From a virus (taxonomy: Duplodnaviria > Heunggongvirae > Uroviricota > Caudoviricetes): 23,780 bases of DNA. Below are positions 5,442 through 23,073 of the stretch, piece after piece (the stretch's first letter is position 1; every line of letters begins with the position of its first letter). Under the pieces are notes generated by a model. The model had not been told where the DNA came from. It ran no database searches and saw only the letters and a program-made list of their open reading frames with translations. The translations under genes and the position numbers were made by a program. The stretch lies in IMG/VR virus record IMGVR_UViG_3300015207_000030, positions 1 to 23,780 of that record; one strand, written 5' to 3'.

Positions 5442-5451
5442 GGTAACCGAA

Positions 5452-5709
5452 ATGATAAGTAAAAAAACCGCGCGGAAGATGTACAACTACTACACCGAGC
5501 GCATAGATCAGCTGATACAAGCGCAGACCGCATTGACGAGCGGCGGCGTTAAATCGTACACTATCGGCGACAGACAGGTCACGAAATTTGACTTGACGCG
5601 GCTGTCGCAGGAGCTTGATGATGCTGTGGAGAAACAGGCGTATTACGATGCGATACTTAAAGGCAAGCCTACGCGCGCGATCGTGGGGATCGTTCCGACG
5701 GATAAATAA
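5452..5709 (+). CDS. Head-tail joining / head completion protein, lambda gpW-like
   Basis: 85 aa directly after terL; LTSGG...YTIGDRQVT...L..L pattern resembles lambda W; position matches lambda gene order. Confidence 0.5.
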   Translation: MISKKTARKMYNYYTERIDQLIQAQTALTSGGVKSYTIGDRQVTKFDLTRLSQELDDAVEKQAYYDAILKGKPTRAIVGIVPTDK

Positions 5710-5740
5710 AACAGCGGCAGCTTTGAGGGCTGCCGCTGCT
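5710..5740. terminator. Bidirectional intrinsic terminator shared by the W-like gene (+) and hicB (-)
   Basis: Stem CAGCGGCAGC (5712..5721) / GCTGCCGCTG (5729..5738) with 7 nt loop; A-rich on the left (U-tract for the minus transcript) and T-containing on the right. Confidence 0.6.
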
Positions 5741-5743
5741 TGG

Positions 5744-6151
5744 TTAATCTTGAATGTGACATTGCTTTTTCAGACCGTCCAGAAGCACGGCTGAGAAATT
5801 CACGCCCTGTTCTTCGGCGATTGCGTTGACCCAACCGGGAATGGAGAGGGTTTTCTTTACGAAGTGCTTGTGCATTTTCTCGCGGAACGGTTTCATATAG
5901 ACTTCGATAAGCATTGGAAGCTCGTTTTTTTCAAGCTGAATATCCTTAAGCTCCGAGGGCTCAGGAATTTCCTCCTTGTCCTCCTCCATTCCGTAAAGGT
6001 GCAGCAGAAGAGCGTCTTTAGCGCTTTCGATTGCTTTTTCGGTGGTTTCCCCCGCGCTTACACAGCCGGGGAGGTCGGGGAAATATATGCCGATTGTTCC
6101 TTTATCGCCGTATTCCAACACGGCGATAAATCTGTATTTGTCGAGGTACAT
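5744..6151 (-). CDS. hicB: HicB-family antitoxin-like protein with C-terminal DNA-binding (RHH-like) tail; no HicA partner found
   Basis: 135 aa; N-terminal YRFIAVLEYGDKGTIGIYFPDLPGCVSAGETTEKAIESAKDALLLHL matches the HicB/UPF0150 signature (PDLPGC core); C-terminal KKTLSIPGWVNAIAEEQGVNFSAVLLDGLKK resembles an RHH/CopG-type segment; RBS AGGAG 6 nt upstream. Confidence 0.75.
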   Translation of the reverse strand: MYLDKYRFIAVLEYGDKGTIGIYFPDLPGCVSAGETTEKAIESAKDALLLHLYGMEEDKEEIPEPSELKDIQLEKNELPMLIEVYMKPFREKMHKHFVKKTLSIPGWVNAIAEEQGVNFSAVLLDGLKKQCHIQD

Positions 6152-6262
6152 AAAGTTCTCCTTTCGATAGTCGGCATTACCGAGGGTTTAACAATTATAT
6201 TGTAATACGCAATTTGTTACGTGTCAAGTGGCTTTTCAAAAATTTTTAAAGAAGGTGAAAAA

Positions 6263-7777: not shown

Positions 7778-8999
7778 ACGCGCTTGTTATGCGCTGGCAG
7801 CCGACAGCAAATCGGAAACGGCAGAGCTTACGCTTTACGGAAACGTTGTCAAAAGGCGTCCGCTCGAGATCGATTGGGATAACGACAGGATCGCCAAGTC
7901 GACGGATAATTATATCGTTGAACAGGAATTTCTCGACGATTTAAAGGCTGTCGGGAAATGCAGGAAATTGAATATCCGCGTGAACTCTCTCGGCGGCGAT
8001 GTGCATGTCGCGCTTACAATTTACAGCCGTTTGCGCGAGCTCACGGAAAACGGCACGGAGCTTACCTGTTCCGTGGACGGAGTGGCAATGTCGGCGGGTT
8101 CGATGATAATGTGCGCCGCTGATAAGGTCACGGCAAGCGAAAGCTCGCTGATAATGGTTCACCGCAGTATGACGATGCCGCCGGATTATCTTAACGCGGA
8201 CGAGCTTCGCAAAGAGGCGGAGAGAATGGACGAGTACGACAAGGCGATAGCGTCCTGTTACAAACGCAAAACGGGAAAGTCCGAGGCGGAGCTGCTCCGC
8301 ATGATGAGTAAGGAGACATATATGACGGGCGCGGAGGCAAAGGACGCGGGCTTTGTGGACGAGCTTACAAGCTCTGAAAAATTAATAGCGATCGCGGCTT
8401 GTGCGGATATGAGATCACTTATGGTGGGCGGCAGAACGTTCGATTTAATGGGCGCTCCCATGCCCTTGAATTTACCGACGGTAACACAGCCCGAGCCGCA
8501 AGGCGGCGCGGACGTTACAGATATATCACAAACTGAAGGAGGTAACGGAATTATGGCAAATAACTTTGATGAACTGCTTAAAGAGAACCCCGCTCTCGCG
8601 GCGGCTATCGAAAAGGAGTTAAAGGCAAAAGCCGAGGCGGACGTTTCGGCTAAGGCGAACGAGACGGCAGCTAAAGCGGTCGAAGCGGAGCGGAAGAGAA
8701 TAGCCGAGATCGACGAGATAGCGGCGCTGTATTCTCCCGAACTGGTGGAGGCGGCGAAGTACGGCGACAAGGCGTGTACAGCGCAGGAACTCAGCTACAG
8801 AGCGGCTGTCGAGAACGCCAAGAGGGGCAGGAAGTTCGGCGACGATCTTCTGGCTGACGCAAAGGATTCGGGAGTGGGCGGCGTTCATGCTGCCGTTCCG
8901 CCCGCCGAGGGCAATGGCGGCGAAAAGTCGGAGGACGAGCTTATGGCAGAGGCAAGAGCAGCCGTTAAGGCGGCGCTCGGAGAGGAGGTAACGGCATGA
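7761..8999 (+). CDS. Prohead protease (ClpP/S49-like) fused to or nested with a scaffold domain, lambda gpC-like
   Basis: NSLGGDV and GVAMSAGSMIM match ClpP-family serine protease motifs; C-terminal third is Ala/Glu/Lys-rich coiled coil typical of scaffolds. Start could be ATG 7743 or ATG 7761 (RBS GAGGAGG). Confidence 0.75.
   Translation: MPKTIERACYALAADSKSETAELTLYGNVVKRRPLEIDWDNDRIAKSTDNYIVEQEFLDDLKAVGKCRKLNIRVNSLGGDVHVALTIYSRLRELTENGTELTCSVDGVAMSAGSMIMCAADKVTASESSLIMVHRSMTMPPDYLNADELRKEAERMDEYDKAIASCYKRKTGKSEAELLRMMSKETYMTGAEAKDAGFVDELTSSEKLIAIAACADMRSLMVGGRTFDLMGAPMPLNLPTVTQPEPQGGADVTDISQTEGGNGIMANNFDELLKENPALAAAIEKELKAKAEADVSAKANETAAKAVEAERKRIAEIDEIAALYSPELVEAAKYGDKACTAQELSYRAAVENAKRGRKFGDDLLADAKDSGVGGVHAAVPPAEGNGGEKSEDELMAEARAAVKAALGEEVTA
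8553..8999 (+). CDS. Possible nested in-frame scaffold protein (lambda Nu3-like arrangement)
   Basis: Internal in-frame ATG at 8553 preceded by strong RBS GAAGGAGG (8535..8542); downstream sequence is the coiled-coil Ala/Glu-rich part of the protease ORF. Confidence 0.35.
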   Translation: MANNFDELLKENPALAAAIEKELKAKAEADVSAKANETAAKAVEAERKRIAEIDEIAALYSPELVEAAKYGDKACTAQELSYRAAVENAKRGRKFGDDLLADAKDSGVGGVHAAVPPAEGNGGEKSEDELMAEARAAVKAALGEEVTA

Positions 9000-9364
9000 C
9001 GGAGCTGTCAAAGAAAACAGCCGCTATGGAGCCCGACGATCTGGTAGTCGGCACACAGCCGCCTTTGCGGACGGTCGGCGCGACCGTTAAAGGCGGCGCG
9101 GGCGAGCTTAAACGCGGCACGATAATGGCAAAGGGAGCGGACGGACTGCTGGATATTCTCGGAAAAGATACCGAAGCGGAGGCTTACGGCATTCTGACCG
9201 ACGATATCAACGCTGCCGACGGCGATCAGCCCGCAGTGATCTACATCAGCGGCAAATTCAACGCCAACAAAATGATCGCCGCGGACGGCTATACGATCAC
9301 GGAAAAAGACAAGGATACGCTACGCAAGTACGGCATCGAGCTTACCGCCGCGCTGTCCTATTGA
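8996..9364 (+). CDS. Head decoration protein, lambda gpD-like
   Basis: 122 aa between protease/scaffold and major capsid; AYGILTDDINAADGDQPAVIYISGKFNANKMI resembles the lambda D core (GILA...T.Y.SG.F). Confidence 0.55.
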   Translation: MTELSKKTAAMEPDDLVVGTQPPLRTVGATVKGGAGELKRGTIMAKGADGLLDILGKDTEAEAYGILTDDINAADGDQPAVIYISGKFNANKMIAADGYTITEKDKDTLRKYGIELTAALSY

Positions 9365-9384
9365 TAAAAGGAGGGACTTTGATA

Positions 9385-10461
9385 ATGCCTAATACGCTTG
9401 ATATTTTCAGCTCCTATACAATGCTGGCGACTCTGGAGCTTGTTAAGCCCGAGACGCTGTTCTTTTCGTCGCGCTATTTCCCTACGGGAGCGGGGGATAT
9501 TTTCAATTCCGACAAGGTGCTTGTCGAATACACAAAGGGCGACCGCAAAATGGCTCCGTTCGTTTCGGAGAGGATCGGCGCTGTTCCCGTTGAGAGACGG
9601 GGCTACGAGATACGCGAGTTTGCGCCCGCGCACATCGGCGTTTCGCGCACGCTCACTCTGGACGATCTTAAAAAGCGCGGGTTCGGCGAGGCGCTGTACT
9701 CCAATACCAAGCCCGCGGAGCGCGCTCTGCGTATGCAGCTTGAGGATATGACCGATCTTAACAAACGCATTTCACGCCGCGAGGAGTGGATGTCGGTGCA
9801 GACCATGATCAACAACGCCTGCCCCGTACAGGAGATGTTTGACGCGAAAACGGTGGGCGAGGAGAAACTCGTACAGTTCTTCGGCAGCGAAAGCTCCGAG
9901 CATATTTACACCGTCGCCAATATGTGGAATTCCAAAGACGGAAACATAACCGGAGACGTTTATGTAATGTGCGAGCAGCTTGCAGGCAGAGGACTGAACG
10001 CCGTCGATCTGGTTATCGGCTCGGACGTTGCGGACGTGTTCTACGACGATCCTGTCATCGCGAGAATGATAGACAAAAACTCGGGCATCAATTTCGGCAT
10101 GATAAACGAGCAGATAGTTTATCCCGGAGTATCGCAGATAGGTCCTCTTAATTTCAGAGGGCACTGGCTGACCATTTATGTGGTGTCGACGTCTTACGAG
10201 GACGAAAACGGCGTTACAAGACCGTATTTCCCCAAAAATTCGGCTATGGTAACATATCCGAATTGCGGCCACAAAATGTACGGGCGGATCACGCAGATGC
10301 CTTACGGTTCTATCGATTACAAGACGATCGCGGCAAAACGTGTTCCGAAGCTTATAGTGGACAATGCCAACGATACGAGAGCGCTGTCGCTCAAAACGCG
10401 TCCGCTTACTGCACCGAGGACATACTGCCCGTACATCTACGCGGCAAACGTAGTGGGCTGA
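9385..10461 (+). CDS. Major capsid protein, lambda gpE family
   Basis: ATG 9385 behind RBS AAAGGAGGG; the N-terminal 90 aa share the pattern Y...P..F.S.YFP...MA.FVS...PV...G..EF.P with lambda E as I recall it; size and position fit. Confidence 0.75.
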   Translation: MPNTLDIFSSYTMLATLELVKPETLFFSSRYFPTGAGDIFNSDKVLVEYTKGDRKMAPFVSERIGAVPVERRGYEIREFAPAHIGVSRTLTLDDLKKRGFGEALYSNTKPAERALRMQLEDMTDLNKRISRREEWMSVQTMINNACPVQEMFDAKTVGEEKLVQFFGSESSEHIYTVANMWNSKDGNITGDVYVMCEQLAGRGLNAVDLVIGSDVADVFYDDPVIARMIDKNSGINFGMINEQIVYPGVSQIGPLNFRGHWLTIYVVSTSYEDENGVTRPYFPKNSAMVTYPNCGHKMYGRITQMPYGSIDYKTIAAKRVPKLIVDNANDTRALSLKTRPLTAPRTYCPYIYAANVVG

Positions 10462-12785: not shown

Positions 12786-14213
12786 ATGCTCCAACATGGT
12801 ATAAACACATTTAAGGACGATACAGGCTCGGTGGCGGTGCAGGTCGCGGCGTGCGGTATCCCGTTCTTTATCGGCGCATGGCCGTGTCATACAGGCAAGG
12901 GCTTTGCGGGTAAGCCGCAGTACTGTACGAGCTTTGACGAGGCGGCGGAGCTGGGCGGGTATTCGTCCGAGTGGCGCTATGAAAACGGCTCTCCGAAATG
13001 GAATTTGTGTCAGGCGGCGTATGCGCACTTTAAGCTCGCGGGAATGAGCCCCGCGATTTTTTACAACATTTTTGACCCCAAAACGCACAGAAGGGCGGTT
13101 GAGGCGGGTAATTATCCCGTTGAAGAACATACCGTTAAGCTGCCGCTTGACGCGCTGCGGAACGGAAACCTTGTCGTTAAGTCGGCGGACGCGGAGGACG
13201 CGCTTGTCGAAAACGTTGACTACGAGGCGTATTATAACTCCGAAAATCTGTGCGTGGAGCTGCTTGAGGGCAGCGCGGCGTATAACGCGGATTCACTTAC
13301 GGTCGCGTATGACGCAGCCGACCCGTCGCTTATTACCGCCGAGGACGTTGAAATGGCTGTTGAAGCTGTTGAAATGTGCTACAGCGTTATCGGTATAGTT
13401 CCCGATCTGCTGTGCGCTCCCGGGTGGTCGGCGAACCCGACCGTCGCGGCGGTAATGGCGGCGAAAGCTCCGTCGATCAACGGGCTTTTCCGCGCAAAGG
13501 CGGTAGTGGATATTGACGCGGCAGTGGTTACCGAATACGGCGCGGTTCTGCAGTACAAGAACGACAACGGCTATACCTCCGAGGATATGGTCGTATGCTG
13601 GCCTATGGTAAAGAACGGCGATTATACGTTCGACCTCTCGGTCATTGCGTGCGGGCTTATGGCAAAGGTCGATTCGGGAAACGCGAACTGTCCGTATGAA
13701 TCGCCGTCCAATAAGGGCGTGCCTATTACAGGCGCTGTCAACGCAAGAGGTGAGGAGATAACCGTTTCGATCGCGCAGGCGGATATCCTTACCGTAACGG
13801 ACGGTATCGTTACCGTGCTCAACAACGGCGGCTGGAGCTTGTGGGGAAACTACCTCGGCTGCTACCCCAAAACGAGCGACGTCGCGAAAATGTTCATCTG
13901 CACCAACAGGACGCAGGACTGGATATGCAATACGTTCATCAAGACGTATTGGCAGTATCTGGATAAGCCGCTTACGCCGCCGCTTCGCGACGCGATAATC
14001 AACAGCTTCAACAGCTGGCTGAACGGATTGACAGCAGAGGGCAAGCTGTACGGCGGCGAACTGGAGTATATATCTGAGCTCAACCCCGTTACACAGCTTA
14101 CGAACGGTATGATAAGACTGGATACATTGGCGGCGTCGCCCATACCTGCGCAGCGCATAGATATGCACGTAGCGTACAGCGTGGATATGCTCGAATCCGC
14201 GTTCAGCTCATAA
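12786..14213 (+). CDS. Contractile tail sheath protein
   Basis: 475 aa behind RBS GAGGAGGAGGG; size and position directly upstream of tube, chaperone and tape measure genes as in PBSX/Mu/P2-type tail modules. Confidence 0.75.
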   Translation: MLQHGINTFKDDTGSVAVQVAACGIPFFIGAWPCHTGKGFAGKPQYCTSFDEAAELGGYSSEWRYENGSPKWNLCQAAYAHFKLAGMSPAIFYNIFDPKTHRRAVEAGNYPVEEHTVKLPLDALRNGNLVVKSADAEDALVENVDYEAYYNSENLCVELLEGSAAYNADSLTVAYDAADPSLITAEDVEMAVEAVEMCYSVIGIVPDLLCAPGWSANPTVAAVMAAKAPSINGLFRAKAVVDIDAAVVTEYGAVLQYKNDNGYTSEDMVVCWPMVKNGDYTFDLSVIACGLMAKVDSGNANCPYESPSNKGVPITGAVNARGEEITVSIAQADILTVTDGIVTVLNNGGWSLWGNYLGCYPKTSDVAKMFICTNRTQDWICNTFIKTYWQYLDKPLTPPLRDAIINSFNSWLNGLTAEGKLYGGELEYISELNPVTQLTNGMIRLDTLAASPIPAQRIDMHVAYSVDMLESAFSS

Positions 14214-14228
14214 AAAGGAGGGAAAGCT

Positions 14229-14756
14229 ATGAGCAGAGAAATAGAGGGTACTATTGCCGCGTATGTTTACGAGAACGGCGTAAACTTTCTGGGTCTGGCA
14301 AAGGTTGATATGCCGGACATTTCGTTCAAAACGTTCACATCGAGCGGACTGGGAATGTGCGGAGACGTGGAGCACGGAGCGCTGTGTCAATTCCAGCCCA
14401 TGAAAATGACCTTGCATTTCCGCGATACCAACACGGCATTTTACGCACTCAGCGATCAGAGGATACATCAGCTTACGCTGGAGGTCGCGAAACAGGTTCA
14501 CGAATACCAAGCGGGAGAAATTCCCGTCACAGGGGTCAAATATGTTGTGGATTTCGAGCCGCTTAAGACAACGGGCGGCAGCATAGAGCCCGCAACGCCG
14601 CAGAATGTTACTGCGGAGGGCTCCGTGTCTATGTTTAAGGAATTTATCAACGGAATTCTTGAACGTCATATTGACGTAACAAAATATATCTACATCGGTC
14701 ACGACGGCGTAGACCGCGCCGCGCCGATACGCAAGGCACTGAATATGGCGTACTGA
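14229..14756 (+). CDS. Tail tube protein
   Basis: 175 aa directly after the sheath gene with RBS AAAAGGAGGG; synteny-based. Confidence 0.65.
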   Translation: MSREIEGTIAAYVYENGVNFLGLAKVDMPDISFKTFTSSGLGMCGDVEHGALCQFQPMKMTLHFRDTNTAFYALSDQRIHQLTLEVAKQVHEYQAGEIPVTGVKYVVDFEPLKTTGGSIEPATPQNVTAEGSVSMFKEFINGILERHIDVTKYIYIGHDGVDRAAPIRKALNMAY

Positions 14757-14767
14757 TGAATAACCAA

Positions 14768-14800
14768 GTATCCCTCCGCGTTCGGAGGGATACGCTTTTT
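14768..14800 (+). terminator. Intrinsic terminator after the tail tube gene
   Basis: Stem GTATCCCTCCG (14768..14778) / CGGAGGGATAC (14783..14793), 4 nt loop, followed by GCTTTTT. Confidence 0.6.
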
Positions 14801-14819
14801 CGACGAAAGGAGAATTGAT

Positions 14820-15221
14820 ATGGATAATGAAGAGATTTTGGGCGGCGAGCTTACCGACGAGGAAAACAAGGCGGTCGACGACGCTGCAGGGAAGATCAGA
14901 AACGACGTAATGACGCCCGACGGCGTTTGGAAGTGCGAGCTGTCAAAGCCGATCACACACAACGGCATTGAATACAGCGAGCTTACGTTCAACTTCGGGA
15001 AGCTCACGGGCGCGGACGCTGTTAATATCGAGGACGAGCTTTCCGCAAAGGGAAAACCCGTGTTTATGAACGAGGCGGCTAACAGTTCGTATCTTATTTT
15101 AATGGCGGCGAGGGCGTGCGAGGAGCATATAAGCTCCGACGCGTTCAAGCGTATGAGCATTGTCGATTTTAACAGGATAAAGAACAAGGCGCGGCTTTTT
15201 TTATTGGGCGTTGCGGTGTAA
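14820..15221 (+). CDS. Tail assembly chaperone (XkdN-like), zero-frame product
   Basis: 133 aa between tube and tape measure; RBS AAAGGAG; ends with the slippery run described in the next feature. Confidence 0.6.
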   Translation: MDNEEILGGELTDEENKAVDDAAGKIRNDVMTPDGVWKCELSKPITHNGIEYSELTFNFGKLTGADAVNIEDELSAKGKPVFMNEAANSSYLILMAARACEEHISSDAFKRMSIVDFNRIKNKARLFLLGVAV

Positions 15222-15370
15222 GTCATTTGCGCCGCGACGTGCTGGCGCTGGCGCGAAACGGCTACGCGCCGATACAGTACTGGCTCGGTCTGCCGCTGCT
15301 TAATATACAGCGCTGGGCAAAAGAGCACAACAAACTGATAGACGAACTTAAAAGGAGTGAGGACGTATAG
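14820..15370 (+). CDS. Tail assembly chaperone, predicted -1 frameshift extended product
   Basis: Slippery heptamer T_TTT_TTA at 15197..15203 in the zero frame; the -1 frame is open from there to TAG at 15368..15370 (56 codons, my hand translation), ending 17 nt before the tape measure start. Confidence 0.45.
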
Positions 15371-15387
15371 CAAACAAGGAGTATCAG

Positions 15388-18300
15388 ATGCTGTTCAGGC
15401 TTGGCGCGCAGCTGGGCGAGAACTTCAACGGAACGTTCTCCTCCGCGCAGAGAGTTCTGCAGACAACGCAAAAGGAAATCCAAGCGCTCAACAAAACGCA
15501 GTCGGAGATCGGCGCTTATCAAAAGCAGCAGCAGAGCATTGAAAAGACGAACGAGAAACTCGAACTGTACAAAAAGCAGCTCGACAATGTTCAAAAGGAA
15601 ATGGCGGAGAGCGGCGAGCACAGTTCAGCGCTCGCGAACAGAGAACTGGAACTGAAAAAACGCATAGAGGATACCAAAGCTGCGTTATCCGATAAGAACC
15701 AAAAGCTGTCGCAGATGAGTGAGGAGCTTAGTAAAGCGGGCGTTGATGTCAATAATCTTACCTCGGAGACCCTGAAATGTCAAGGCGAGATCGCCAAATT
15801 GTCAAAGCAGGAAGAAATCGCGGCGGCAGAGGCGGCGCGGTTCGGTGACGAGGGCGCTACGGCGTTTGAGGCTGTCGGCTCCGCGCTTGTTTCGGCGGGC
15901 ATTGCGGCGGCACTCAATAAGATAGCGGACGAATACCGCGCGTGTGTTGAAGCGTCAATGGAATTCGGCTACACAATATCTACCGTTGAAGCACTTTCGG
16001 GTGCTTCGGTAACGGAAATGCAGACGCTCACCGCGACCGCGAAAGAGCTGGGCGCGACGACCGCGTTTACCGCAAATCAGTCCGCACAGGCCATGACATA
16101 CATGGGAATGGCAGGCTGGAACGCGGGGCAAATGGTGTCGGGAATGGACGGCGTTCTGAACCTCGCGGCGGCAAGCGGCGAGGGCTTGGCGAACGTCTCG
16201 GATATCGTTACCGACAATCTTACCGCGTTCGGTCTGAAAGCCTCGGATACCGCACACTTCGCGGACGTTCTCGCGGCGGCGGCTACAAATTCCAATACTT
16301 CTGTCGGAATCATGGGCGAAACGTTCAAGGGTTCGGCGTCTGTCGCGGGAGCGCTCGGCTATAGCATTGAAGATGTCGCGGTTATGACAGGTCTTATGGC
16401 AAACGCGGGTGTTAAGGGCTCAATCGCGAATACCGCACTGAAGAACACATTTAACGGACTGCTGAGCGGTGTTACACTTACGGGTACTGCGCTTGGCGAA
16501 GTTGAATTTACAGCAGTGAACGCGGACGGAACGATGAAGGGTTTAAGCGGCACCGTCGACGAACTGCGTGGGTACTTCGATCAAATGACCGAATCAGAAC
16601 GCGTAAATAACGCTATGGCTCTTGCGGGACAGCGCGGTTATAACGGCTTGCTTGCAATACTCAATGCCACCGATGAGGACTATCAAAGTTTGACCGACAG
16701 CATAAATAACTGTACGGGTTCTGCGCAGAAGATGGCAAATATCAAGCTGGATAATCTGCATGGCGATGTTACGCTGCTTGATTCCGCGACCGATGGTCTG
16801 AGAATGACTATCGGCGGTCTGTATGAGGACGAGCTGAGACAGGCAGCACAGATCGGTACAGAGATCATTACCAAGATCAACGAGTTCTGCGAGCAAAATC
16901 CCGTGGCGGTCAAGGCAATAATGGCAGGTGCTGCCGCGTTAGGCGGCTTGGCATTGGCTTATGGAACGGTAAATACTGTTAAAAAAGTGAAAAACGCGCT
17001 TGATACGCTTGGTATAACTCTGACAGCGGCACATACCGCAGGAACAACAAAAATGACTTTTGCTGAGAGTGCTCACGCTTTTGCAACAACAGTTGCCGCA
17101 AAAGCACAAGCGGGTTGGAACGCTGTGATGGCGGCCGCACCGTTAATGATATTTGTTGGAGCTGTTGTTGCTGCAACGGCTGGAATTGCAGCTTTAAGAG
17201 AAGCGTTCAAAGTTGAGACTATTGAAATGCAAACGCTCAACACTGCGACACAAGAACAGCGCGATAAGGTATCGCAGCTTTCCGAGGAATATGAAAAAGC
17301 TTGTGAGATTTACGGTGAAACGGACACCAGAACACGCGCGCTGAAATACGACCTCGACGAGGCTACGGCAGCTATTGACGATCAATCTTTTTCGGTAAAG
17401 GATCTGTACGCCGAAATAGATACGTTACACAGCTCGACGAGCGGCTTGCTTGAGGACTGCCGCAGCAGTACGGCAAGCATTGACGAGCAGTATGACAGTG
17501 CCATGATACTTTCGGCTAAGCTGCGCGAGTTAGCGTCGAGCTCGGACAGATCGGCAGAATCACAGGCAAAAATGGAGCCGATCGTGCGGCGGCTTAATGA
17601 AATGTATCCCGGGTTGGGGCTGAGTGTTGAAAATGCAGCCGACAAAATGGGCTTGCTGAACGGGCAGATCGAACAGGCAGCAAAGTCGCAGAGCTTACTA
17701 GCAAAATATAAGAGCGCCGATGATAATCTTCCGGAACTGTACGCAAAACAACTGCAGCTTCAGGAGGCTGTCGAAAAAGCGGAGATCGCACAAGTCAGAG
17801 CGGGAAAAGAATTCACCGACGCGGCGGGAGACAATTTCTTTACCGTCGCCGCCGGTATGATAACCGGCAGGGCGCAGGATACCGAAAAAGCCTATGATGA
17901 GGCGAGTGAAAAGGTGCGTACCGCACGGGGAGATCTGGCAGCCGTAGAGGCGCAGATACGCGAGTGTGAGGCAGCAATGGAAGAATACGGCGGCGTTGTT
18001 TCGGGAACTTCGGAGGAGACCGTTTCGGCGTTCGATGCGGTATCTATCGCCGTGAACGAAGTCACCGCTGAAACCGAGGAACTGCTGAAAGCCTACAACG
18101 ACGCGTATCAAGCGGCATACGACAGTGTTTCGGGGCAGTACGCGCTTTGGGACAAGGCTGCGGAGGTCTCGGCGGTGAGCGTCGGCACGATCAACGAAAA
18201 CCTCGAACAGCAAGCGGCTTATTGGGATAGCTACAACACCAATCTGAACTTGCTGCTCGGCAGAGCGGGCGATATAGACGGATTAAAAGACGTTCTCGCG

Positions 18301-19014
18301 GCGTTCGCGGATGGCAGCACGGACAGCGTGAACGCCGTCGCGGGTATGGCGTCCGCGTCCGACGAGGATCTGAAGCGTATGATTGAGAACTGGCAGATGG
18401 TTCAAGCGGAGCAAAACAAGACCGCCGAGGCGCTTGCCGATACAAAGGTCGACTTCAAGGAGCGGATGGACGGTATCGCGGACGATATGAACAACGTTAT
18501 CAAGGATATGAACTTAAGCGCCGAGGCAAAAACGGCGGCGGAGGAAACCATTAAGGCATACGCCGAGGCTATCGCGGCGGGCAAGGGCTCGGTCGCTGAA
18601 GCGGCGGATATCGTCGCGGCGGCGGTCGGGAACGCTCTCGGGATATCTCTCGCCGCAGATAACGCTGTGACCCCGGGCGGCGAATACGTCAGGGGATTTC
18701 ACAAGATAGACGCGTATGCCGACGGCACGGACTACGCAAAAAGCGGATACGCGATAGTCGGCGAGGAGGGTCCCGAGCTTGTTAAATTCGGCGGCGGTGA
18801 AAAGGTATTCCCAAACGATAAAACAATGGCTATTTTAGGCAATTCCGCGTCAAACACAGGCGGACAGACGGTAATAAATATCTCGCCGCAATTCACGATA
18901 AACGGCAGCGCCGACGCGAGTATGGTCGAGGAGGCTTCCGAGCGGCTGATTGAGCTTGTCATGGACGGACTGCGCGAGGCGGGTATCGACGCACGGAGAG
19001 GGGCGTATGTATGA
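15388..19014 (+). CDS. Tail tape measure protein
   Basis: 1208 aa; N-terminal coiled coil; central Gly/Ala-rich block (MTYMGMAGWNAGQMVSGMDGVLNLAAASGEGLANVSDIVTDNLTAFGL) typical of the tape-measure core; two hydrophobic segments; RBS AAGGAG. Confidence 0.85.
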   Translation: MLFRLGAQLGENFNGTFSSAQRVLQTTQKEIQALNKTQSEIGAYQKQQQSIEKTNEKLELYKKQLDNVQKEMAESGEHSSALANRELELKKRIEDTKAALSDKNQKLSQMSEELSKAGVDVNNLTSETLKCQGEIAKLSKQEEIAAAEAARFGDEGATAFEAVGSALVSAGIAAALNKIADEYRACVEASMEFGYTISTVEALSGASVTEMQTLTATAKELGATTAFTANQSAQAMTYMGMAGWNAGQMVSGMDGVLNLAAASGEGLANVSDIVTDNLTAFGLKASDTAHFADVLAAAATNSNTSVGIMGETFKGSASVAGALGYSIEDVAVMTGLMANAGVKGSIANTALKNTFNGLLSGVTLTGTALGEVEFTAVNADGTMKGLSGTVDELRGYFDQMTESERVNNAMALAGQRGYNGLLAILNATDEDYQSLTDSINNCTGSAQKMANIKLDNLHGDVTLLDSATDGLRMTIGGLYEDELRQAAQIGTEIITKINEFCEQNPVAVKAIMAGAAALGGLALAYGTVNTVKKVKNALDTLGITLTAAHTAGTTKMTFAESAHAFATTVAAKAQAGWNAVMAAAPLMIFVGAVVAATAGIAALREAFKVETIEMQTLNTATQEQRDKVSQLSEEYEKACEIYGETDTRTRALKYDLDEATAAIDDQSFSVKDLYAEIDTLHSSTSGLLEDCRSSTASIDEQYDSAMILSAKLRELASSSDRSAESQAKMEPIVRRLNEMYPGLGLSVENAADKMGLLNGQIEQAAKSQSLLAKYKSADDNLPELYAKQLQLQEAVEKAEIAQVRAGKEFTDAAGDNFFTVAAGMITGRAQDTEKAYDEASEKVRTARGDLAAVEAQIRECEAAMEEYGGVVSGTSEETVSAFDAVSIAVNEVTAETEELLKAYNDAYQAAYDSVSGQYALWDKAAEVSAVSVGTINENLEQQAAYWDSYNTNLNLLLGRAGDIDGLKDVLAAFADGSTDSVNAVAGMASASDEDLKRMIENWQMVQAEQNKTAEALADTKVDFKERMDGIADDMNNVIKDMNLSAEAKTAAEETIKAYAEAIAAGKGSVAEAADIVAAAVGNALGISLAADNAVTPGGEYVRGFHKIDAYADGTDYAKSGYAIVGEEGPELVKFGGGEKVFPNDKTMAILGNSASNTGGQTVINISPQFTINGSADASMVEEASERLIELVMDGLREAGIDARRGAYV

Positions 19015-19220
19015 CTTACACAACGGTTCAAGGGGATATGTGGGACAGCATTGCCTATAAATTGTACGGCGATACAAAGTTTAAGGACGTGCTTATTGAG
19101 GCGAATACCGAGTACAGGCGGATATACATTTTTTCGGCGGGGATCGTTCTGGAAGTGCCGGAGGTTGAAACGCGCGTCACGCCCGACGATCTTCCACCGT
19201 GGAAGAGGGTGAGCGGATGA
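19011..19220 (+). CDS. LysM-like tail protein (XkdP / P2 gpX-like)
   Basis: 69 aa; TVQGDMWDSIAYKLYGD...EAN pattern of LysM; position after the tape measure gene. Confidence 0.6.
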   Translation: MTYTTVQGDMWDSIAYKLYGDTKFKDVLIEANTEYRRIYIFSAGIVLEVPEVETRVTPDDLPPWKRVSG

Positions 19221-21022
19221 GCGACGCAAACAAAGCGCGCAGCGCCTCGGCGCAGGTTGTTTTCAACGGCGTTGATATAAGCGTGTATGTGAACAGCGAC
19301 CTTATATCGCTCACATACACTGACAATGAGGAGGACGAAGCGGACGATCTTCAGATAAAGGTGCTTGACCGCGATAGGAACTGGCTGCAAAAATGGCTGG
19401 ATACGCTTGTTTCCGATGCCGCGATCGGCAGCAGCTCCGAAAATACTGCGGGCTCTGTCGGCGCGGACGGTTATTCAGGTTCGGGCGGCGGTTCGGGCAG
19501 CTCCGGGGGAACGTCCTATAAAGTAACGGCGACAAGCGGCGTAAACGTCCGCACCAATACCACGTCCAAAGGCAAGATACTCGGCAAGCTGCCCTACGGC
19601 ACTGTTGTTTCGGTAAATAAATTTTCAGATGGCTGGGCGCAGATAAGGTACACGGGCAAAACGGCGTGGATAAAAGGAGAAAATCTTAAGCTCGTCGGCG
19701 GTTCGGGAAATTTCGCAAAGAAATCGGCAAAGGTCGAAAAGGGCGGTTTTTCGGGCGACAGAAACAGCGACTGGGCGATAGGCGACGAGGTAATCGCGAC
19801 GGGTACGCCGCAATATTCGTCCTACGGTCTGGGCGAGCCGGGCGCTCCCGTGAGCGGTCACAAGGGCAAGGTGTCGCATCTGAACCTCGGCGAGGGTATT
19901 CCGTACCCCGTTCACGTCGATTATCTGGGCTGGTTCGCGGAAAATCAGGTGCAGCGTGTAAACGGCGAGGACAAGCAGCCGGCGGAACGATCGGCGTGCA
20001 AGGGCTTAAAAATATCGGCGGCTATCGTCCGTAAGAATTGGAACGCGGACGGAAACGACGAAGTCCTCGACTGCGGACAGTTCGAGCTGGATAACATTAC
20101 GGTTGACGGTCCGCCGAATACCGTAACGATAAAGGCGACCTCGCTGTCGTATTCCAACTCCGTAAGACAGACCGAGAAAAGCAAGGCGTGGGAGAATGTC
20201 ACGCTTTCTCAGATCATCGAGTTTATAACGAAAAAAAGCGGCATGGGATATATGTACATCAGCGCGAAAGACCCCGTGTATTCGCACGTTGAGCAGTACC
20301 GGCAGAGCGATATCGCGTTTTTAAGCAAGCTCTGTCATAACGTAGGGTGTTCTCTCAAGGTCACGAGCAATATCATCGTTGTTTTCGACCAAGCGGAATT
20401 CGACCAAAACCCTGAGATCAGAACGATAAAATTCGGCAGAGATTACACGAAATACCGTTTGACAACCAACGAGAACGACAGCTACACAAGCTGCCGCGTT
20501 TACTGCACCGCTCCCGACGGCGGGGTCGTTTCCGCGACCGTTTTTTCTGATGATTACAAAGAGGACGGTAACAACGACCGTCGACTGGAGATACAGCAGA
20601 ACGTCGGCAGCATTGCCGAGGCGGAGGAGCTCGCCTATAAAATGCTCCGTCTGCATAATAAATACGAGTTTGAGGCGTCGTTTACTTTCCCCGGAGACCC
20701 CGAGCTTACGGCGGGGAGCGTTGTCGCGCTTGAGGATTTCGGCGCTTGGAACGGCAGATATGTCATTAAACAGGCGAAGCATACGCTTTCGCATTCGGGG
20801 CACACAACGCAGATAAGTCTGCGGAGAGCATTGCCGCCCGCGCCGTCGGAGGTTCACGGGGAAACGGACGGCAAGCCCGCCTATGACGTTGACGAGCTCG
20901 CGCTGCAGGTCATTCGCGGAGATTGGGATAACGGAGACGCTCGTTACGACAAGCTGACGGCGGCGGGTTATGACTACGATGCCGTACAGCGCCGCGTCAA
21001 CGAGCTGTTGGGAATATATTAA
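19217..21022 (+). CDS. Baseplate hub / late-control-D-like tail protein carrying an SH3b domain and a C-terminal CW_7-like cell-wall-binding motif
   Basis: ATG 19217 overlaps the LysM stop; Gly/Ser linker then YKVTATSGVNVRTNTTSKGKILGKLPYGTVVSVNKFSDGWAQIRYTGKTAWIK (SH3b-like, about 19517..19697); C-terminal ELALQVIRGDWDNGDARYDKLTAAGYDYDAVQRRVNELLG matches the Cpl-7-type CW_7 repeat as I recall it. Confidence 0.65.
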   Translation: MSDANKARSASAQVVFNGVDISVYVNSDLISLTYTDNEEDEADDLQIKVLDRDRNWLQKWLDTLVSDAAIGSSSENTAGSVGADGYSGSGGGSGSSGGTSYKVTATSGVNVRTNTTSKGKILGKLPYGTVVSVNKFSDGWAQIRYTGKTAWIKGENLKLVGGSGNFAKKSAKVEKGGFSGDRNSDWAIGDEVIATGTPQYSSYGLGEPGAPVSGHKGKVSHLNLGEGIPYPVHVDYLGWFAENQVQRVNGEDKQPAERSACKGLKISAAIVRKNWNADGNDEVLDCGQFELDNITVDGPPNTVTIKATSLSYSNSVRQTEKSKAWENVTLSQIIEFITKKSGMGYMYISAKDPVYSHVEQYRQSDIAFLSKLCHNVGCSLKVTSNIIVVFDQAEFDQNPEIRTIKFGRDYTKYRLTTNENDSYTSCRVYCTAPDGGVVSATVFSDDYKEDGNNDRRLEIQQNVGSIAEAEELAYKMLRLHNKYEFEASFTFPGDPELTAGSVVALEDFGAWNGRYVIKQAKHTLSHSGHTTQISLRRALPPAPSEVHGETDGKPAYDVDELALQVIRGDWDNGDARYDKLTAAGYDYDAVQRRVNELLGIY

Positions 21023-21032
21023 GGAGAACATT

Positions 21033-21224
21033 ATGTCCGATTTGAGAATTGGAAAGGTTACAAAGGTCAACGGCGGCAGGGTCAAAGTGCATTTCGAGGA
21101 CGTGAATATCGAGTCCGATTGGCTCGCTTGTGTGAACGGCGTTCAGAGCGTCGGCACGGTGGTGTTGTGTGCGTTCGCTTCGGGGTTCAACGGCGAGGGC
21201 TATGTATTGGGGGCGTTGGTATGA
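21033..21224 (+). CDS. Small baseplate protein (XkdR-like, tentative)
   Basis: 63 aa from ATG 21033 behind RBS AAGGAG; the listed longer ORF from 20970 overlaps the hub gene. Confidence 0.45.
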   Translation: MSDLRIGKVTKVNGGRVKVHFEDVNIESDWLACVNGVQSVGTVVLCAFASGFNGEGYVLGALV

Positions 21225-21616
21225 CTGTCGGAAGTCTTGGCGGCATTGTTTTCACGGTCTCCCCGAACAGGATCGAGACCGTGGACGGCTTTAAGCAAAG
21301 CGGCTCGGCGAACTATGGAAAGCATCAGCGGCACGGCGGAGATACGCTTCTGGAGTTTGTCGGACGTGACGCGGATACTATCTCGTTCAATATGTTATTG
21401 GCGGCGCAGCTCGGCGTTGATGTTGAGGCGGAGATCGCCAAGATCGTGAGCGCGGAGCAGTCGGGCGAGGCGTTAAGGTTCGTTATAGGCAAGAAAATTC
21501 TCGGGCGGTATCGGTGGGTGATAACAAAGCACACCGTGACCTACAAGCAGCTTGACAGAGAGCAAAGGCTGATATTGGCGGAGGTCTCCGTGCAGCTTAC
21601 CGAGTATCTGAAGTAG
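21221..21616 (+). CDS. Hypothetical baseplate protein
   Basis: 131 aa from ATG 21221 (ATGA overlap with the previous stop); synteny only. Confidence 0.45.
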   Translation: MTVGSLGGIVFTVSPNRIETVDGFKQSGSANYGKHQRHGGDTLLEFVGRDADTISFNMLLAAQLGVDVEAEIAKIVSAEQSGEALRFVIGKKILGRYRWVITKHTVTYKQLDREQRLILAEVSVQLTEYLK

Positions 21617-21623
21617 GTGAATT

Positions 21624-21947
21624 ATGGACGTTACGATAAATTCAAGAGAAGAATACGGCGGTACTTTTCTGGAAAACGATACCGTCAAGTCCGTTGTACA
21701 GAATATCGCCCTGCTGCTGAACACCAGAAAGGGCACTGTGCCGATGTACCGCGAATTCGGCTTACCTATGGAGTTTATCGACAAGCCGACAGATATTGCG
21801 GAAACAATGGCGGTGCTGGAGATATCCGAGGCTGTCGAGGAATTTGAACCGCGCGCCAAGCTCAAAGACCTGACGATCACAAAGACCGAAGAGGGCGCAA
21901 TGGCTGTAATAGTTGAGGTGACGATCAATGAGGGGAACGGATCATAA
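21624..21947 (+). CDS. Baseplate wedge protein, GPW/gp25-like
   Basis: 107 aa; VVQNIALLLNTRKGTVPMYREFG and EFEPRAKL fit the gp25/GPW signature as I recall it. Confidence 0.65.
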   Translation: MDVTINSREEYGGTFLENDTVKSVVQNIALLLNTRKGTVPMYREFGLPMEFIDKPTDIAETMAVLEISEAVEEFEPRAKLKDLTITKTEEGAMAVIVEVTINEGNGS

Positions 21948-23073
21948 ATTTGTACAGACCGACAGCGCGGCAGTACTTTCCACGCTGATAGCGAAATACG
22001 AGGAGCTGACGGGGCGGACGCTCCTCCCGGCAGACCCCGACCGCGTTTTTATTTCGTGGGTCGCGGACGTGATAATTCAGGAGCGCTCGCTGCTGAATTT
22101 CGCGGCAAATCAGAATATCCCGTCGCGCGCAGTAGGCTCACATCTGGACGCGCTCGGCGAGTTTATTTACAATTTAAAGCGCCCGACCGCAAAGCCGTCG
22201 GAGTGTACGATAAAATTCACGATCACCGAGCCGCGTGATACGGCGGTGAGTATTCCGATAGGTACGCGTGTGACGGATACCGCGCAGAAAATGACGTGGA
22301 AAACGGACGAGGACGCGGTCGTTCCGATCGGCGAGACCGAAACACTCGTTCACGCAGTCTGCGTTACCGAGGGGATTGTCGGGAACGGGTATGTCGCGGG
22401 GCAGATCTGCAAACTCGTCGACGCTGACAACGTTGAATTCTTCAGCTCATGCGCGAACGTTGACATTTCGAGCGGCGGCTCGGATAAGGCGGACGACAGC
22501 GGGTACTACGAGCTTATGCGGCAGAGCCTTGAGGCGTACAGCACGGCAGGACCGAGGGGCGCGTATGAGTATCACGCAAAGGCGGTATCCTCGGAGATCG
22601 CGGACGTTTGCGCAATAGACCCTCTTGATATGCCGGGCACGGTGCATATTTACGCCGTTATGAACGACGGCTCGATCGCGGATAGCGGCACGAAGAACGC
22701 CATACTCGAGGCGTGCAATGATGAAAGGATACGTCCGCTTACCGACTTTGTCGAGGTGCTCGATCCCGAAACCGTGGATTTCGATGTTGACCTTACATAT
22801 TACGTCGACAGAAGCAGCGCGAAAACAATGAGCGATATTGCCGCGGATGTCCGCAATGCCGTGGACGAATACATAAAATGGCAGACGGCAAGGATAGGAC
22901 GCGACATAAATCCGTCCAAGCTGAGCTGGCTGCTTAGCGGAACGGGCGTTAAGCGCGTGGATATCAGACTGCCCGTTTTTACGCCGCTGCGCGACGGCTC
23001 GGAGCGTATAACGCCGCAGTTCGCGCGGCATTTCTCAACAAAAATAACAAACGGGGGCTTTGAGAATGAGTAA
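21928..23073 (+). CDS. Baseplate J-like protein
   Basis: 381 aa directly after the gp25-like gene, as in P2/PBSX baseplate clusters; size and synteny. Confidence 0.65.
   Translation: MRGTDHKFVQTDSAAVLSTLIAKYEELTGRTLLPADPDRVFISWVADVIIQERSLLNFAANQNIPSRAVGSHLDALGEFIYNLKRPTAKPSECTIKFTITEPRDTAVSIPIGTRVTDTAQKMTWKTDEDAVVPIGETETLVHAVCVTEGIVGNGYVAGQICKLVDADNVEFFSSCANVDISSGGSDKADDSGYYELMRQSLEAYSTAGPRGAYEYHAKAVSSEIADVCAIDPLDMPGTVHIYAVMNDGSIADSGTKNAILEACNDERIRPLTDFVEVLDPETVDFDVDLTYYVDRSSAKTMSDIAADVRNAVDEYIKWQTARIGRDINPSKLSWLLSGTGVKRVDIRLPVFTPLRDGSERITPQFARHFSTKITNGGFENE

Follow-up and report, generated by a model that had tools for sequence, protein, structure and literature searches.

The open reading frame at positions 19217-21022 of the window (the whole stretch of 23,780 nucleotides analysed here, from IMG/VR record IMGVR_UViG_3300015207_000030) is confirmed as the gene of a gpD/gp27-type baseplate hub. 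The hub carries three small accessory modules, SH3_3, a second SH3-like barrel (module 2) and CW_7. Judging by their sequences, these are families that serve the endolysins of the same phage group as non-catalytic wall-targeting parts. We consider it probable that the modules bind peptidoglycan at the tail tip and fasten the tip to the wall while the tube is driven in. Taken together, our results suggest a tail tip that grips the thick wall and does not digest it. A hub with such modules is no peculiarity of this phage; it belongs to a large family with combinatorial swapping of modules.

The hub and its scaffold

The hub gene is divided as follows.

19217-21022 (+): baseplate hub gene, 601 amino acids (aa), a gpD/gp27/VgrG-type hub bearing three accessory modules
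19217-19426 (+): N-terminal segment of the hub core, aa 1-70
19427-19510 (+): Gly/Ser-rich flexible linker, aa ~71-98
19511-19693 (+): SH3_3 (bacterial SH3b) module, aa 99-159, first part of the loop insertion
19769-19963 (+): module 2, second SH3-like barrel, aa 185-249, without a Pfam model, probably a divergent member of an endolysin-type module family
20000-20836 (+): hub core, aa 262-540, with the 6u5h_C alignment, Phage_GPD and YQBQ, and the fold matches
20837-20881 (+): flexible linker before the C-terminal module, aa 541-555
20882-21019 (+): C-terminal CW_7 repeat, aa 556-601, a three-helix module

The ATG of the hub gene overlaps the stop codon of the gene upstream, and an alternative GTG start lies at 19199. 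Gene callers predict the identical 601-aa protein on 21 independent contigs. Pfam matches were judged against the curated gathering scores, and CW_7, SH3_3, Phage_GPD and YQBQ all lie above them. In the core, Phage_GPD (PF05954) covers residues 317-525 with 31.4 bits (cut-off 30.1) and YQBQ (PF24032) scores 30.4 bits (cut-off 27). The protein also matches PHROG 52 'tail protein' with E 1e-76, and in a phmmer search of PDB sequences its core matches the pyocin R2 hub 6u5h_C with E 1.7e-15. Specifically, residues 11-54 align to residues 4-47 of 6u5h_C and residues 281-534 to residues 67-320, residues ~55-280 being an insertion relative to the pyocin R2 hub.

The AF2 model of the hub has a mean pLDDT of 76.9, mostly 80-92 in the core, and consists of five folded units with low-confidence linkers between them. 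Foldseek matches the model with probability 1.0 to about 50 solved hubs, including Mu gp44, T4 gp27, VgrG and those of diffocin, phiCD508 and monocin; the fold matches of the core comprise Mu gp44, diffocin 8v3w_H, phiCD508 9g8s_q and monocin 9j1k_L. The N-terminal segment is folded in the model, with strands at residues 9-50 and a helix at 52-70. The Gly/Ser-rich linker behind it (pLDDT <50 at residues 69-97) differs in length and sequence between relatives, and the linker ahead of the C-terminal module has pLDDT <50 at residues 542-553. The first-pass annotation, made from the sequence alone, had called the protein a late-control-D-like hub. Phage_GPD and YQBQ above cut-off and the match to 6u5h_C bear this out, and, of the checks it had proposed, the domain searches for SH3, CW_7 and Phage_GPD and the structure prediction of the hub came out in its favour.

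The three accessory modules

SH3_3 and module 2 are both inserted in one loop of the hub. SH3_3 (PF08239) covers residues 107-158 with 40.9 bits (cut-off 27), and SH3_4 is matched as well. Its matches among PDB sequences include 2kq8 and 2krs, SH3 domains from surface proteins and cell-wall hydrolases, and 9ovi, which was deposited merely as a conserved domain protein. In the AF2 model the module is all-beta, with strands at residues 99-159 forming a beta-barrel. An internal bacterial SH3 domain after a Gly/Ser linker had been annotated, and this is what is found, the linker (residues ~71-97) preceding the SH3 domain. Note that wall binding is not uniform among members of the SH3_3 family.

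The annotation had counted two wall-binding modules and missed a further one: residues ~185-249 form a second SH3-like barrel, which brings the count to three. Module 2 has no Pfam match even at E up to 10, and a profile search of the PDB gave matches at chance level only. It is well conserved, with 25 invariant positions among 26 sequences. When aligned to an endolysin-type module, which we call type A, hhalign gives a probability of 90.5% and E 1.3e-6. In addition, the module at the equivalent position in the hub of Faecalibacterium phage Taranis is 43% identical to the endolysin module of a related locus, L006 (E 1e-19). These comparisons give moderate, not decisive, support to the view that module 2 is homologous to a module in the C-terminal halves of endolysins. 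Such homologues are seen in the endolysins of Roseburia phage Shimadzu, Faecalibacterium phage Lagaffe and the loci L006, L093 and L095. An exhaustive search with module 2 gave 73 matches, 36 of them in proteins other than hubs; the commonest domain partners among these 36 are Peptidase_M23 (5), Amidase_2 (5), GH25 (3), CHAP (3) and Amidase_3 (1). A word-indexed profile search with module 2 found one match among only 390 candidates collected, too few to be informative, and tblastn found matches to annotated endolysins.

The CW_7 motif annotated at the C-terminus holds up: CW_7 (PF08230) covers residues 559-598 with 66.0 bits (cut-off 25), and the module aligns directly to the repeats of Cpl-7 in the PDB sequence search (5i8l, E 7.8e-22; 4cvd, E 3.5e-7). 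The AF2 model has three helices in this region, 558-567, 574-582 and 587-598, forming a three-helix bundle with pLDDT of about 89-91. Residues I566, R576 and Q591 of the hub correspond in the alignment to Ile261, Arg271 and Gln286 of Cpl-7, which contact the muropeptide GMDP and proved important for its binding in experiments (PMC5705596). Each of the three is conserved in at least 90% of 100 relatives.

Neighbouring genes and the absence of a catalytic domain

The hub gene sits between the genes of the tape measure and gpX on one side and those of the spike, gpU, gpW and gpJ on the other, and the order is the same in all relatives.

15388-19014 (+): tape measure protein, 1208 aa; Pfam PhageMin_Tail only, PHROG tape measure families only, no lytic domain
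19011-19220 (+): gpX-like small baseplate protein (Phage_tail_X, LysM clan), adjoining the hub
21033-21224 (+): very short central spike/gpV-like protein, 63 aa; PHROG 6142 'baseplate assembly protein', E 1.7e-10, weak Pfam Phage_base_V
21221-21616 (+): gpU-like protein, Pfam Phage_P2_GpU
21624-21947 (+): gpW/gp25-like protein, Pfam GPW_gp25
21928-23073 (+): gpJ-like protein, Pfam Baseplate_J

The spike/gpV-like orthologue in locus L009 likewise has a faint Phage_base_V match.

The first-pass annotation took the upstream neighbour for a LysM protein and for one more sign of wall binding. A LysM-clan gene does adjoin the hub, in fact in every relative examined; its product has no match to Pfam LysM itself, only to Phage_tail_X (33.7 bits), and falls into PHROG 46 'baseplate hub'. 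It is the standard baseplate part gpX and adds nothing to the case for wall binding. In Mu, Milano, A-1(L) and R2 pyocin the corresponding module has been described as a structural baseplate element, and gpX also occurs in phages and pyocins of Gram-negative hosts, where it is read as structural (PMC11915804). As a conserved baseplate component that is structural in Gram-negative-host systems, gpX cannot count as an extra wall-binding module; the literature and its universal presence beside the hub rule this out.

The hub has no catalytic domain by Pfam (E up to 1), PHROGs, NCBIfam, PDB sequence search or fold search, the classes considered being lysozyme, lytic transglycosylase, NlpC/P60, CHAP, M23 and amidase. 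Having no peptidoglycan-cleaving domain, it does not belong to the virion-associated peptidoglycan hydrolases or hub-hydrolases. No catalytic domain was detected by Pfam or PHROGs in the tape measure or the other tail genes, where one might have been hidden, nor in the remaining ORFs of the window. The absence of a hydrolase domain from hub and tape measure, as annotated at first, therefore stands by Pfam and PHROGs, and for the hub by the PDB and fold searches as well. An endolysin of this phage itself was not recovered: all contigs with the exact hub stop at most 5.1 kb downstream, searching viral and metagenome contigs for exact patterns from the contig end gave no match, and the 10 kb upstream of the window, which encode methylases, an amidoligase and toxin-antitoxin systems, lack a lysin gene.

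A hub family with exchangeable modules

The hub architecture is widely distributed among Oscillospiraceae and Lachnospiraceae phages and prophages; cultured strains with related prophages include Anaerotruncus colihominis DSM 17241, Flavonifractor sp. An100 and Dysosmobacter segnis. The hosts of the family are gut Clostridia, which are monoderm and have a thick wall. All three modules are retained in over 100 protein clusters that range from 100% to about 49% identity. In 90 dereplicated hubs the same two positions are occupied, in many combinations, by SH3_3, module 2/type A, PG_binding_1, LysM, CW_7 and a further module, type B. In one clade (loci L175 and L176) the hub loop that bears SH3_3 and module 2 here contains an intact NlpC/P60 endopeptidase; it is the only catalytic cluster of the 90, and its best PDB match (for L175) is the endopeptidase of the diffocin hub-hydrolase CD1368. 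An NlpC/P60 domain in the same loop implies that this site meets peptidoglycan.

The endolysins of relatives carry CW_7, type A, type B and SH3_3 modules, and the relatives encode separate fibres, often diversified by DGRs. In the first three loci compared, the hub and endolysin modules are 64% (L007, 81 aa), 45% (L009, 115 aa) and 55% (L006, 53 aa) identical. Among 16 dereplicated loci, the excess of hub-endolysin matching within genomes over shuffled pairings is not significant, and we therefore report a shared pool of modules rather than matched pairs. Recent copying between hub and endolysin of one genome can also be rejected as a general rule, as in the identity matrices hub modules are usually closer to the modules of other hubs; L007 alone leans the other way, its hub module being nearer to its own lysin. 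Type A (with module 2) and type B represent at least two families of wall-binding type that have no Pfam model and are common in the endolysins of gut phages.

Comparison with known systems

The closest cultured-phage homologue is gp59 of Faecalibacterium phage FP_Taranis (YP_009797411, 'tail protein'), an orthologous hub with 42% identity and the same gene order. Its corresponding loop holds just one SH3-like type A module, and SH3_3 and a C-terminal CW_7 are missing; the module is described neither in the phage record nor in the Taranis papers retrieved. The principle of loop insertion is also known from the 'evolved' Dit and Tal of lactococcal and Lactobacillus siphophages, central tail-tip proteins with inserted non-catalytic carbohydrate-binding modules. 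Those modules are of CBM type, target wall polysaccharides and sit on non-contractile tails, whereas the modules of the present family are of peptidoglycan type (SH3b, CW_7, PG_binding_1, LysM) and sit on a gpD hub of a contractile tail.

Two hubs of Clostridia systems are direct fold matches. Diffocin CD1368 (8V3W chain H) is likewise a gp27/gpD-type hub of a contractile particle directed against a Gram-positive Clostridium, and behind its hub domain come a flexible linker and accessory domains that act on the wall; our linker at aa 541-555 has the same topological position as the flexible loop before its hydrolase domains (PMC11329794). In contrast to CD1368, our hub has three modules of binding type and no catalytic domain, and two of the modules lie in an internal loop, not at the C-terminus. 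The needle hub of phiCD508 (9G8S) is a Clostridia myophage hub without an enzymatic domain; the phage has a minimal baseplate and a short needle, and purely mechanical penetration has been proposed (PMC11948020, PMC13324602). The phiCD508 hub lacks accessory domains altogether, while ours adds three of wall-binding type. In the Bacillus myophages Deep-Blue (Gp189) and Vp4 (Gp110) the hub is also fused to a wall-related domain, which there is a C-terminal NlpC/P60 peptidase with demonstrated bacteriolytic activity (PMC11406892); the present hub has none. The Cpl-7 endolysin (4CVD, 5I8L) shares with our hub the CW_7 family, the three-helix fold and the Ile/Arg/Gln residues, but it bears three tandem repeats on a GH25 muramidase instead of a single repeat on a virion structural protein. 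The CW_7 architectures surveyed in the Cpl-7 study are wall hydrolases, and tail proteins are not mentioned there (PMC5705596).

Possible role of the modules

The identity of the domains, the insertion topology, the exchange of modules across the family and the lack of a catalytic domain are established here; that the hub binds the wall we infer from the homology of its modules. The hub is the central baseplate part of a contractile-tailed phage of gut Oscillospiraceae and would be present in three copies at the tip of the tail tube, around the very short spike. Its conserved gpD/gp27 scaffold bears the three small non-catalytic modules on flexible linkers, and up to nine modules per virion would bind peptidoglycan; the ligand of CW_7 would be the GlcNAc-MurNAc-L-Ala-D-isoGln unit. 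As the baseplate opens and the tube is driven in, the modules would secure the tip in the thick wall of the Gram-positive host and keep it there until spike, tape measure and DNA have gone through. The wall itself would be crossed mechanically or with the help of an enzyme encoded outside the tail module. In diffocin, the C-terminal accessory domains of the hub dock on the wedge and come free when the particle fires (PMC11329794). The first-pass annotation had proposed peptidoglycan as an anchor or receptor for the tail tip. This idea is consistent with the endolysin-type module families, the conserved contact residues of CW_7 and the endopeptidase at the same site in a relative; the LysM argument that was used in its favour falls away.

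Whether binding takes place during penetration or before it, and what it serves, we can only infer. It is possible, though we think it rather unlikely, that the modules are adhesins that act before firing: their linkers would let them extend beneath the baseplate and attach to a primary or secondary receptor, either exposed peptidoglycan or a wall polymer, thereby affecting host range and the trigger of contraction. The linkers are indeed long and, with 29, 23 and 12 residues at pLDDT <50, disordered, the modules are swapped among close relatives on a conserved scaffold, as expected of host-adaptive binding parts, and carbohydrate-binding modules on baseplate proteins of Bacillus myophages aid adsorption (PMC11406892). 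However, within the baseplate the hub lies furthest in, and wedges surround it in every solved relative, the separate and often DGR-diversified fibres are more obvious receptor binders, and motifs such as GMDP are too widespread to confer specificity alone.

Recruitment for protein-protein contacts within the baseplate appears improbable. The modules would then dock on the wedge as a latch or 'ripcord' and tune the trigger without binding the wall. SH3-like barrels are common as protein-protein modules, and in diffocin the C-terminal accessory domains of the hub bind the wedge periphery before contraction, an arrangement likened by the authors to the pyocin ripcord protein (PMC11329794). Yet docking hardly explains why folds that are unrelated and have only a wall-binding role in common (SH3_3, CW_7, PG_binding_1, LysM) interchange at the same sites; the conservation of the CW_7 ligand-contact residues and the catalytic NlpC/P60 in the same loop of one clade also speak against a latch. 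Least credible of all is that the modules are functionally neutral leftovers from a hub-hydrolase ancestor whose catalytic domain has been lost. Fusions of this kind do exist (CD1368, Gp189, Gp110 and the L175/L176 clade), but leftovers would not be expected to persist as one architecture across such a range of identity and so many clusters, or to keep the invariant positions of module 2; the modules are actively exchanged and not degraded, and a catalytic domain occurs in just one cluster in 90.

Implications

It is a standing question by what means contractile phages and tailocins get through a Gram-positive wall of 30-100 nm. Of the two solved Clostridia systems, diffocin with its hub-hydrolase represents an enzymatic answer and phiCD508 a purely mechanical one (PMC13324602). 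The hub family described here points to a third possibility in the same structural place, one based on binding. The family is also at odds with the textbook generalisation that virion-associated wall-active proteins have no wall-binding domains (PMC6116005).

A broader proposal, which we put forward as a speculation that may well fail, is that phages of gut Oscillospiraceae and Lachnospiraceae use a hitherto undescribed enzyme-free wall strategy. The hub would be a modular peptidoglycan grapple, and interchangeable endolysin-type modules (SH3_3, the unnamed SH3-like family, CW_7, PG_binding_1, LysM, type B) would decide which host wall chemistry the tip engages. If this is true, the module content of the hub would be a second, predictable determinant of host range besides the fibres. 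Gut viromes of humans and animals, as well as prophages of cultured Oscillospiraceae, contain the family in abundance, the lineage of Faecalibacterium phage Taranis included, and the hypothesis of a tip that binds the wall is therefore testable with available strains. It is relevant to the prediction of host range and to the engineering of tailocins and phages against gut Clostridia.

Domain organisation of the hub

The hub gene proposed by the first-pass annotation is intact, and its ATG overlaps the stop codon of the gene directly before:

19217-21022 (+), gpD/gp27-type baseplate hub, 601 aa

The identical 601-aa protein is called on 21 independent contigs (NCBI, JGI, ENA and Logan assemblies). 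Its late-control-D-like, SH3b and CW_7 parts, originally named from the bare sequence, are upheld by the Pfam domain search, in which all four families exceed their curated cut-offs.

Regions of the hub (residues; AlphaFold2 model units, with Pfam matches in bits)
9-70: N-terminal part of the hub (model)
99-159: SH3 barrel (model); 107-158, SH3_3, 40.9 bits, cut-off 27
185-249: module 2, a second small all-beta domain (model)
262-540: hub core (model); 317-525, Phage_GPD, 31.4 bits, cut-off 30.1; 466-536, YQBQ, 30.4 bits, cut-off 27
556-600: three-helix CW_7 bundle (model); 559-598, CW_7, 66.0 bits, cut-off 25
69-97, 161-183, 250-261, 542-553: low-confidence linkers (pLDDT <50)

In the PDB sequence search the core aligns with the pyocin R2 hub 6u5h_C (E 1.7e-15), residues 11-54 corresponding to 6u5h_C residues 4-47 and residues 281-534 to 67-320. 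Since the flanks alone align, residues ~55-280 represent an insertion in a loop of a known hub. The AlphaFold2 model, built from 100 homologues (mean pLDDT 76.9), predicts five folded units, with stretches of pLDDT below 50 linking them. Its core matches about 50 solved hubs in Foldseek with probability 1.0, among them Mu gp44, T4 gp27, VgrG, pyocin R2, diffocin (8v3w_H), phiCD508 (9g8s_q) and monocin. Four core cysteines (C286, C373, C426 and C456) are kept in at least 90% of 100 relatives, C426 being invariant. NCBIfam holds no model naming such a protein and automated annotation picks up pieces of it, as in the JGI name 'phage protein D/SH3-like domain-containing protein'.

Searches of Pfam, PHROGs, NCBIfam, PDB sequences and folds revealed no catalytic domain in the hub or in the tape measure (1208 aa), in agreement with the first reading, and the rest of the window gave none either. 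The tail module thus lacks a catalytic domain. A neighbouring LysM protein had also been taken as evidence of wall binding, and this was not borne out: the 69-aa upstream gene is Phage_tail_X (gpX), not Pfam LysM, and it adjoins the hub in all relatives inspected. In the baseplates of Mu, Milano, A-1(L) and R2 pyocin, which all belong to Gram-negative systems, the module of LysM type is described as structural, lying between hub and wedge (PMC11915804).

Identity of the modules

The C-terminus aligns with the CW_7 repeats of the endolysin Cpl-7 (5i8l, E 7.8e-22; also 4cvd). Each Cpl-7 repeat binds the muropeptide GlcNAc-MurNAc-L-Ala-D-isoGln; replacing the groove Arg or Gln by alanine strongly lowers the binding signal, and an Ile was the third substitution made for testing the binding model (PMC5705596). 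Aligned to Cpl-7, the equivalents of Ile, Arg and Gln are I566, R576 and Q591, each at least 90% conserved in 100 relatives. PDB matches of the hub SH3_3 include SH3 domains from wall hydrolases and from surface proteins, and it has sub-threshold NCBIfam matches to 'cell wall-binding protein EntA-D' models.

The SH3b and CW_7 modules of the first-pass annotation therefore stand, but its count of two overlooked module 2. Pfam gives no match for this domain, even with E relaxed to 10, and the PDB sequence search none that is significant; modelled alone it reaches pLDDT 91.5. The endolysin of L006, a locus whose hub is 77% identical to ours, consists of Amidase_2, Peptidase_M23, a segment without assignment and CW_7. 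Faecalibacterium phage Taranis has a single module in the corresponding hub loop, and the L006 segment is 43% identical to it (E 1e-19); the segment also matches the module 2 profile with an hhalign probability of 85-90.5% (E about 1e-6). In tblastn the segment matches the Taranis and Pioen hubs and, in addition, proteins annotated as endolysins in Roseburia phage Shimadzu (residues ~183-246 of 316), Faecalibacterium phage Lagaffe, Dulem virus 37 and phage nd4. When 1.84 billion representative proteins were searched exhaustively with a profile, 73 matched: the top ~22 are hub-sized, and most of the others are 230-480 aa long and carry the module C-terminally or close to that end. Pfam domains on 36 non-hub carriers were Peptidase_M23 (5), Amidase_2 (5), GH25 (3), CHAP (3), Amidase_3 (1), LysM (3), CBM_5_12 (3), SH3_3 (2) and CW_7 (1). 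Because of these endolysin matches and partner domains, module 2 probably belongs, as a divergent member, to an unnamed SH3-like family that serves in the non-catalytic part of peptidoglycan hydrolases; its link to the endolysin modules comes from profile comparison and is of moderate strength. Two of the 36 carriers (among proteins P0140-P0192) have a DNA_circ_N match as well (Mu gp43-type tube initiator), so that in some phages another central baseplate protein is decorated likewise.

Module exchange in the hub family

Over 100 protein clusters have the complete SH3_3, module 2 and CW_7 architecture, the most distant at about 49% identity. IMG/VR yielded 399 relatives and the GTDB species genomes 120, with hosts in the Oscillospiraceae, Ruminococcaceae, Acutalibacteraceae and Lachnospiraceae; cultured ones include Anaerotruncus colihominis, Flavonifractor, Dysosmobacter, Agathobaculum and Flintibacter. 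One Oscillospiraceae MAG is 100% identical to hub residues 214-601. A genome record labelled Escherichia coli ('cleanbin'; L127, CAVIFG010000007.1) has a Clostridia-type tail module with a 56% identical hub, most likely on a mis-binned contig. When 168 hubs were dereplicated at 90% identity, local HMMs recognised at least one module in 86 of the 90 clusters. Pfam scans of about 40 representatives showed what the sites hold.

Contents of the hub insertion sites
Loop insertion: SH3_3 alone; SH3_3 + module 2; type A (related endolysin-type SH3-like module) alone (Taranis); SH3_3 + PG_binding_1; PG_binding_1 alone; SH3_3 + LysM
Second site within the hub core: PG_binding_1, in one lineage
C-terminus: CW_7; unnamed type B; a second module 2 copy; type A; or nothing

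In one clade (L175:9983-11551, and L176) an NlpC/P60 endopeptidase (100.9 bits) replaces the binding modules of the loop. This enzyme keeps intact Cys and His motifs, and in the PDB it matches best the endopeptidase domain of the diffocin hub-hydrolase (E 1.3e-22). Unrelated folds with nothing but a wall-directed role in common interchange at these sites, and the loop can also house an enzyme that has to contact peptidoglycan. Of the indirect evidence that the insertion sites meet the wall, this is the strongest.

Several endolysins, and some hubs, carry type B (about 65 aa) as their C-terminal module. Its motif is GDkVk...Y.nG..ipaWV....lyVr.ve..gkVlvS......tG.v...dl.ki, and Pfam gave no match for it up to E = 10; related entries are L007:19547-20722, L009:19958-21166, L093:16759-17736, L064:19550-21016 and L065:19754-20719. 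The hub and endolysin of one phage may carry similar modules, as in the loci inspected first: C-terminal type B in L007 (64% identity over 81 aa, E 4e-31), C-terminal modules in L009 (45% over 115 aa) and CW_7 in L006 (55% over 53 aa), with further sharing in L013, L108 and L131 (CW_7) and L072 and L103 (SH3_3). Genome-by-genome matching was rejected, as the excess over shuffling was non-significant in 16 dereplicated loci with a permutation control. Any module type was shared in 8 of 16 loci against 6.2 expected (P 0.20), the hub C-terminal type was found in the lysin in 6 of 11 against 3.7 (P 0.10), and the CW_7 association gave P 0.077 (Fisher). Hub modules are usually nearer to those of other hubs than to those of their own lysin. 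What can be defended is a common module pool (CW_7, type A/module 2, type B and SH3_3) for the hubs and endolysins in this group of phages.

Genome context

The genome is mosaic, a lambda-type packaging/head region being joined to a P2/Mu/PBSX-type contractile tail.

Other features of the window
19-342 (+): 3' end of an Amidoligase_2 gene, the first ORF
420-872 (+): GGACT/AIG2-like gamma-glutamyl cyclotransferase
1295-1699 (-), 1683-1916 (-), 5744-6151 (-): toxin-antitoxin genes within the packaging/head region
3525-10461: lambda-type packaging/head, with terminase (3525-5441) and portal (6221-7777)
12786-23073: contractile tail and simple baseplate

The lambda-type set comprises gpA terminase, lambda-family portal, ClpP-type protease, gpD-like decoration protein and gpE-like capsid. 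Of the toxin-antitoxin genes, the pair upstream of the terminase is a PIN-domain toxin with a PhdYeFM antitoxin, and the gene between terminase and portal is a HicB-like antitoxin, all by precomputed Pfam matches on the identical contig. The Amidoligase_2/GGACT pair (also L010:8979-10453) may be a conserved peptide-modification accessory module of the phage group; in the relatives L007 and L009 a GGACT gene directly follows the lysis cassette, on the other strand. In many relatives diversity-generating retroelement cassettes (bAvd and reverse transcriptase) adjoin tail-fibre, FGE-sulfatase or DUF6273 genes (L007:17386-19116, L009:17886-19623, L094:19334-21116, L095:18588-20335, Taranis (L001) 17851-19305). 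All 21 exact-hub contigs end within about 5 kb downstream of the hub (region L002:14614-16918), just past a 576-aa fibre-like gene without Pfam match. Searches for the phage's own endolysin, and for sequence past the fibre-like gene, found neither. Such systematic breakage of assemblies at the same place suggests that the region beyond is hypervariable or repeated.

Possible role of the modules

The diffocin hub domain (1-314) continues through a flexible loop into C-terminal hydrolase domains, which are docked on the wedge before firing and freed by contraction for action on the wall (PMC11329794). Our hub shares this topology, with binding modules standing where diffocin has enzymes, and adds the loop insertion. 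For phiCD508, which has a bare hub, penetration is proposed to be mechanical (PMC13324602). Given the diffocin-like topology with binding modules for enzymes and the loop insertion, we propose an anchor: nine modules per virion would bind peptidoglycan, and the bound modules would keep the tail tip in the wall while the tube is driven in. Module identity, topology and family-wide swapping are observed; that the modules bind peptidoglycan, when they would do so and what the phage would gain are what we infer. The modules might instead act as an adhesin before firing or as an internal latch, or they might be vestigial.

Hubs fused to catalytic domains are already known (diffocin, Deep-Blue Gp189, Vp4 Gp110), and, in the words of one review, virion-associated lysins 'seem to lack' domains for wall binding (PMC6116005). 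Our full-text literature searches found no paper on non-catalytic peptidoglycan-binding modules on a contractile-tail hub. The architecture described here is well supported, and its predicted function in these phages of gut Oscillospiraceae is wall binding.
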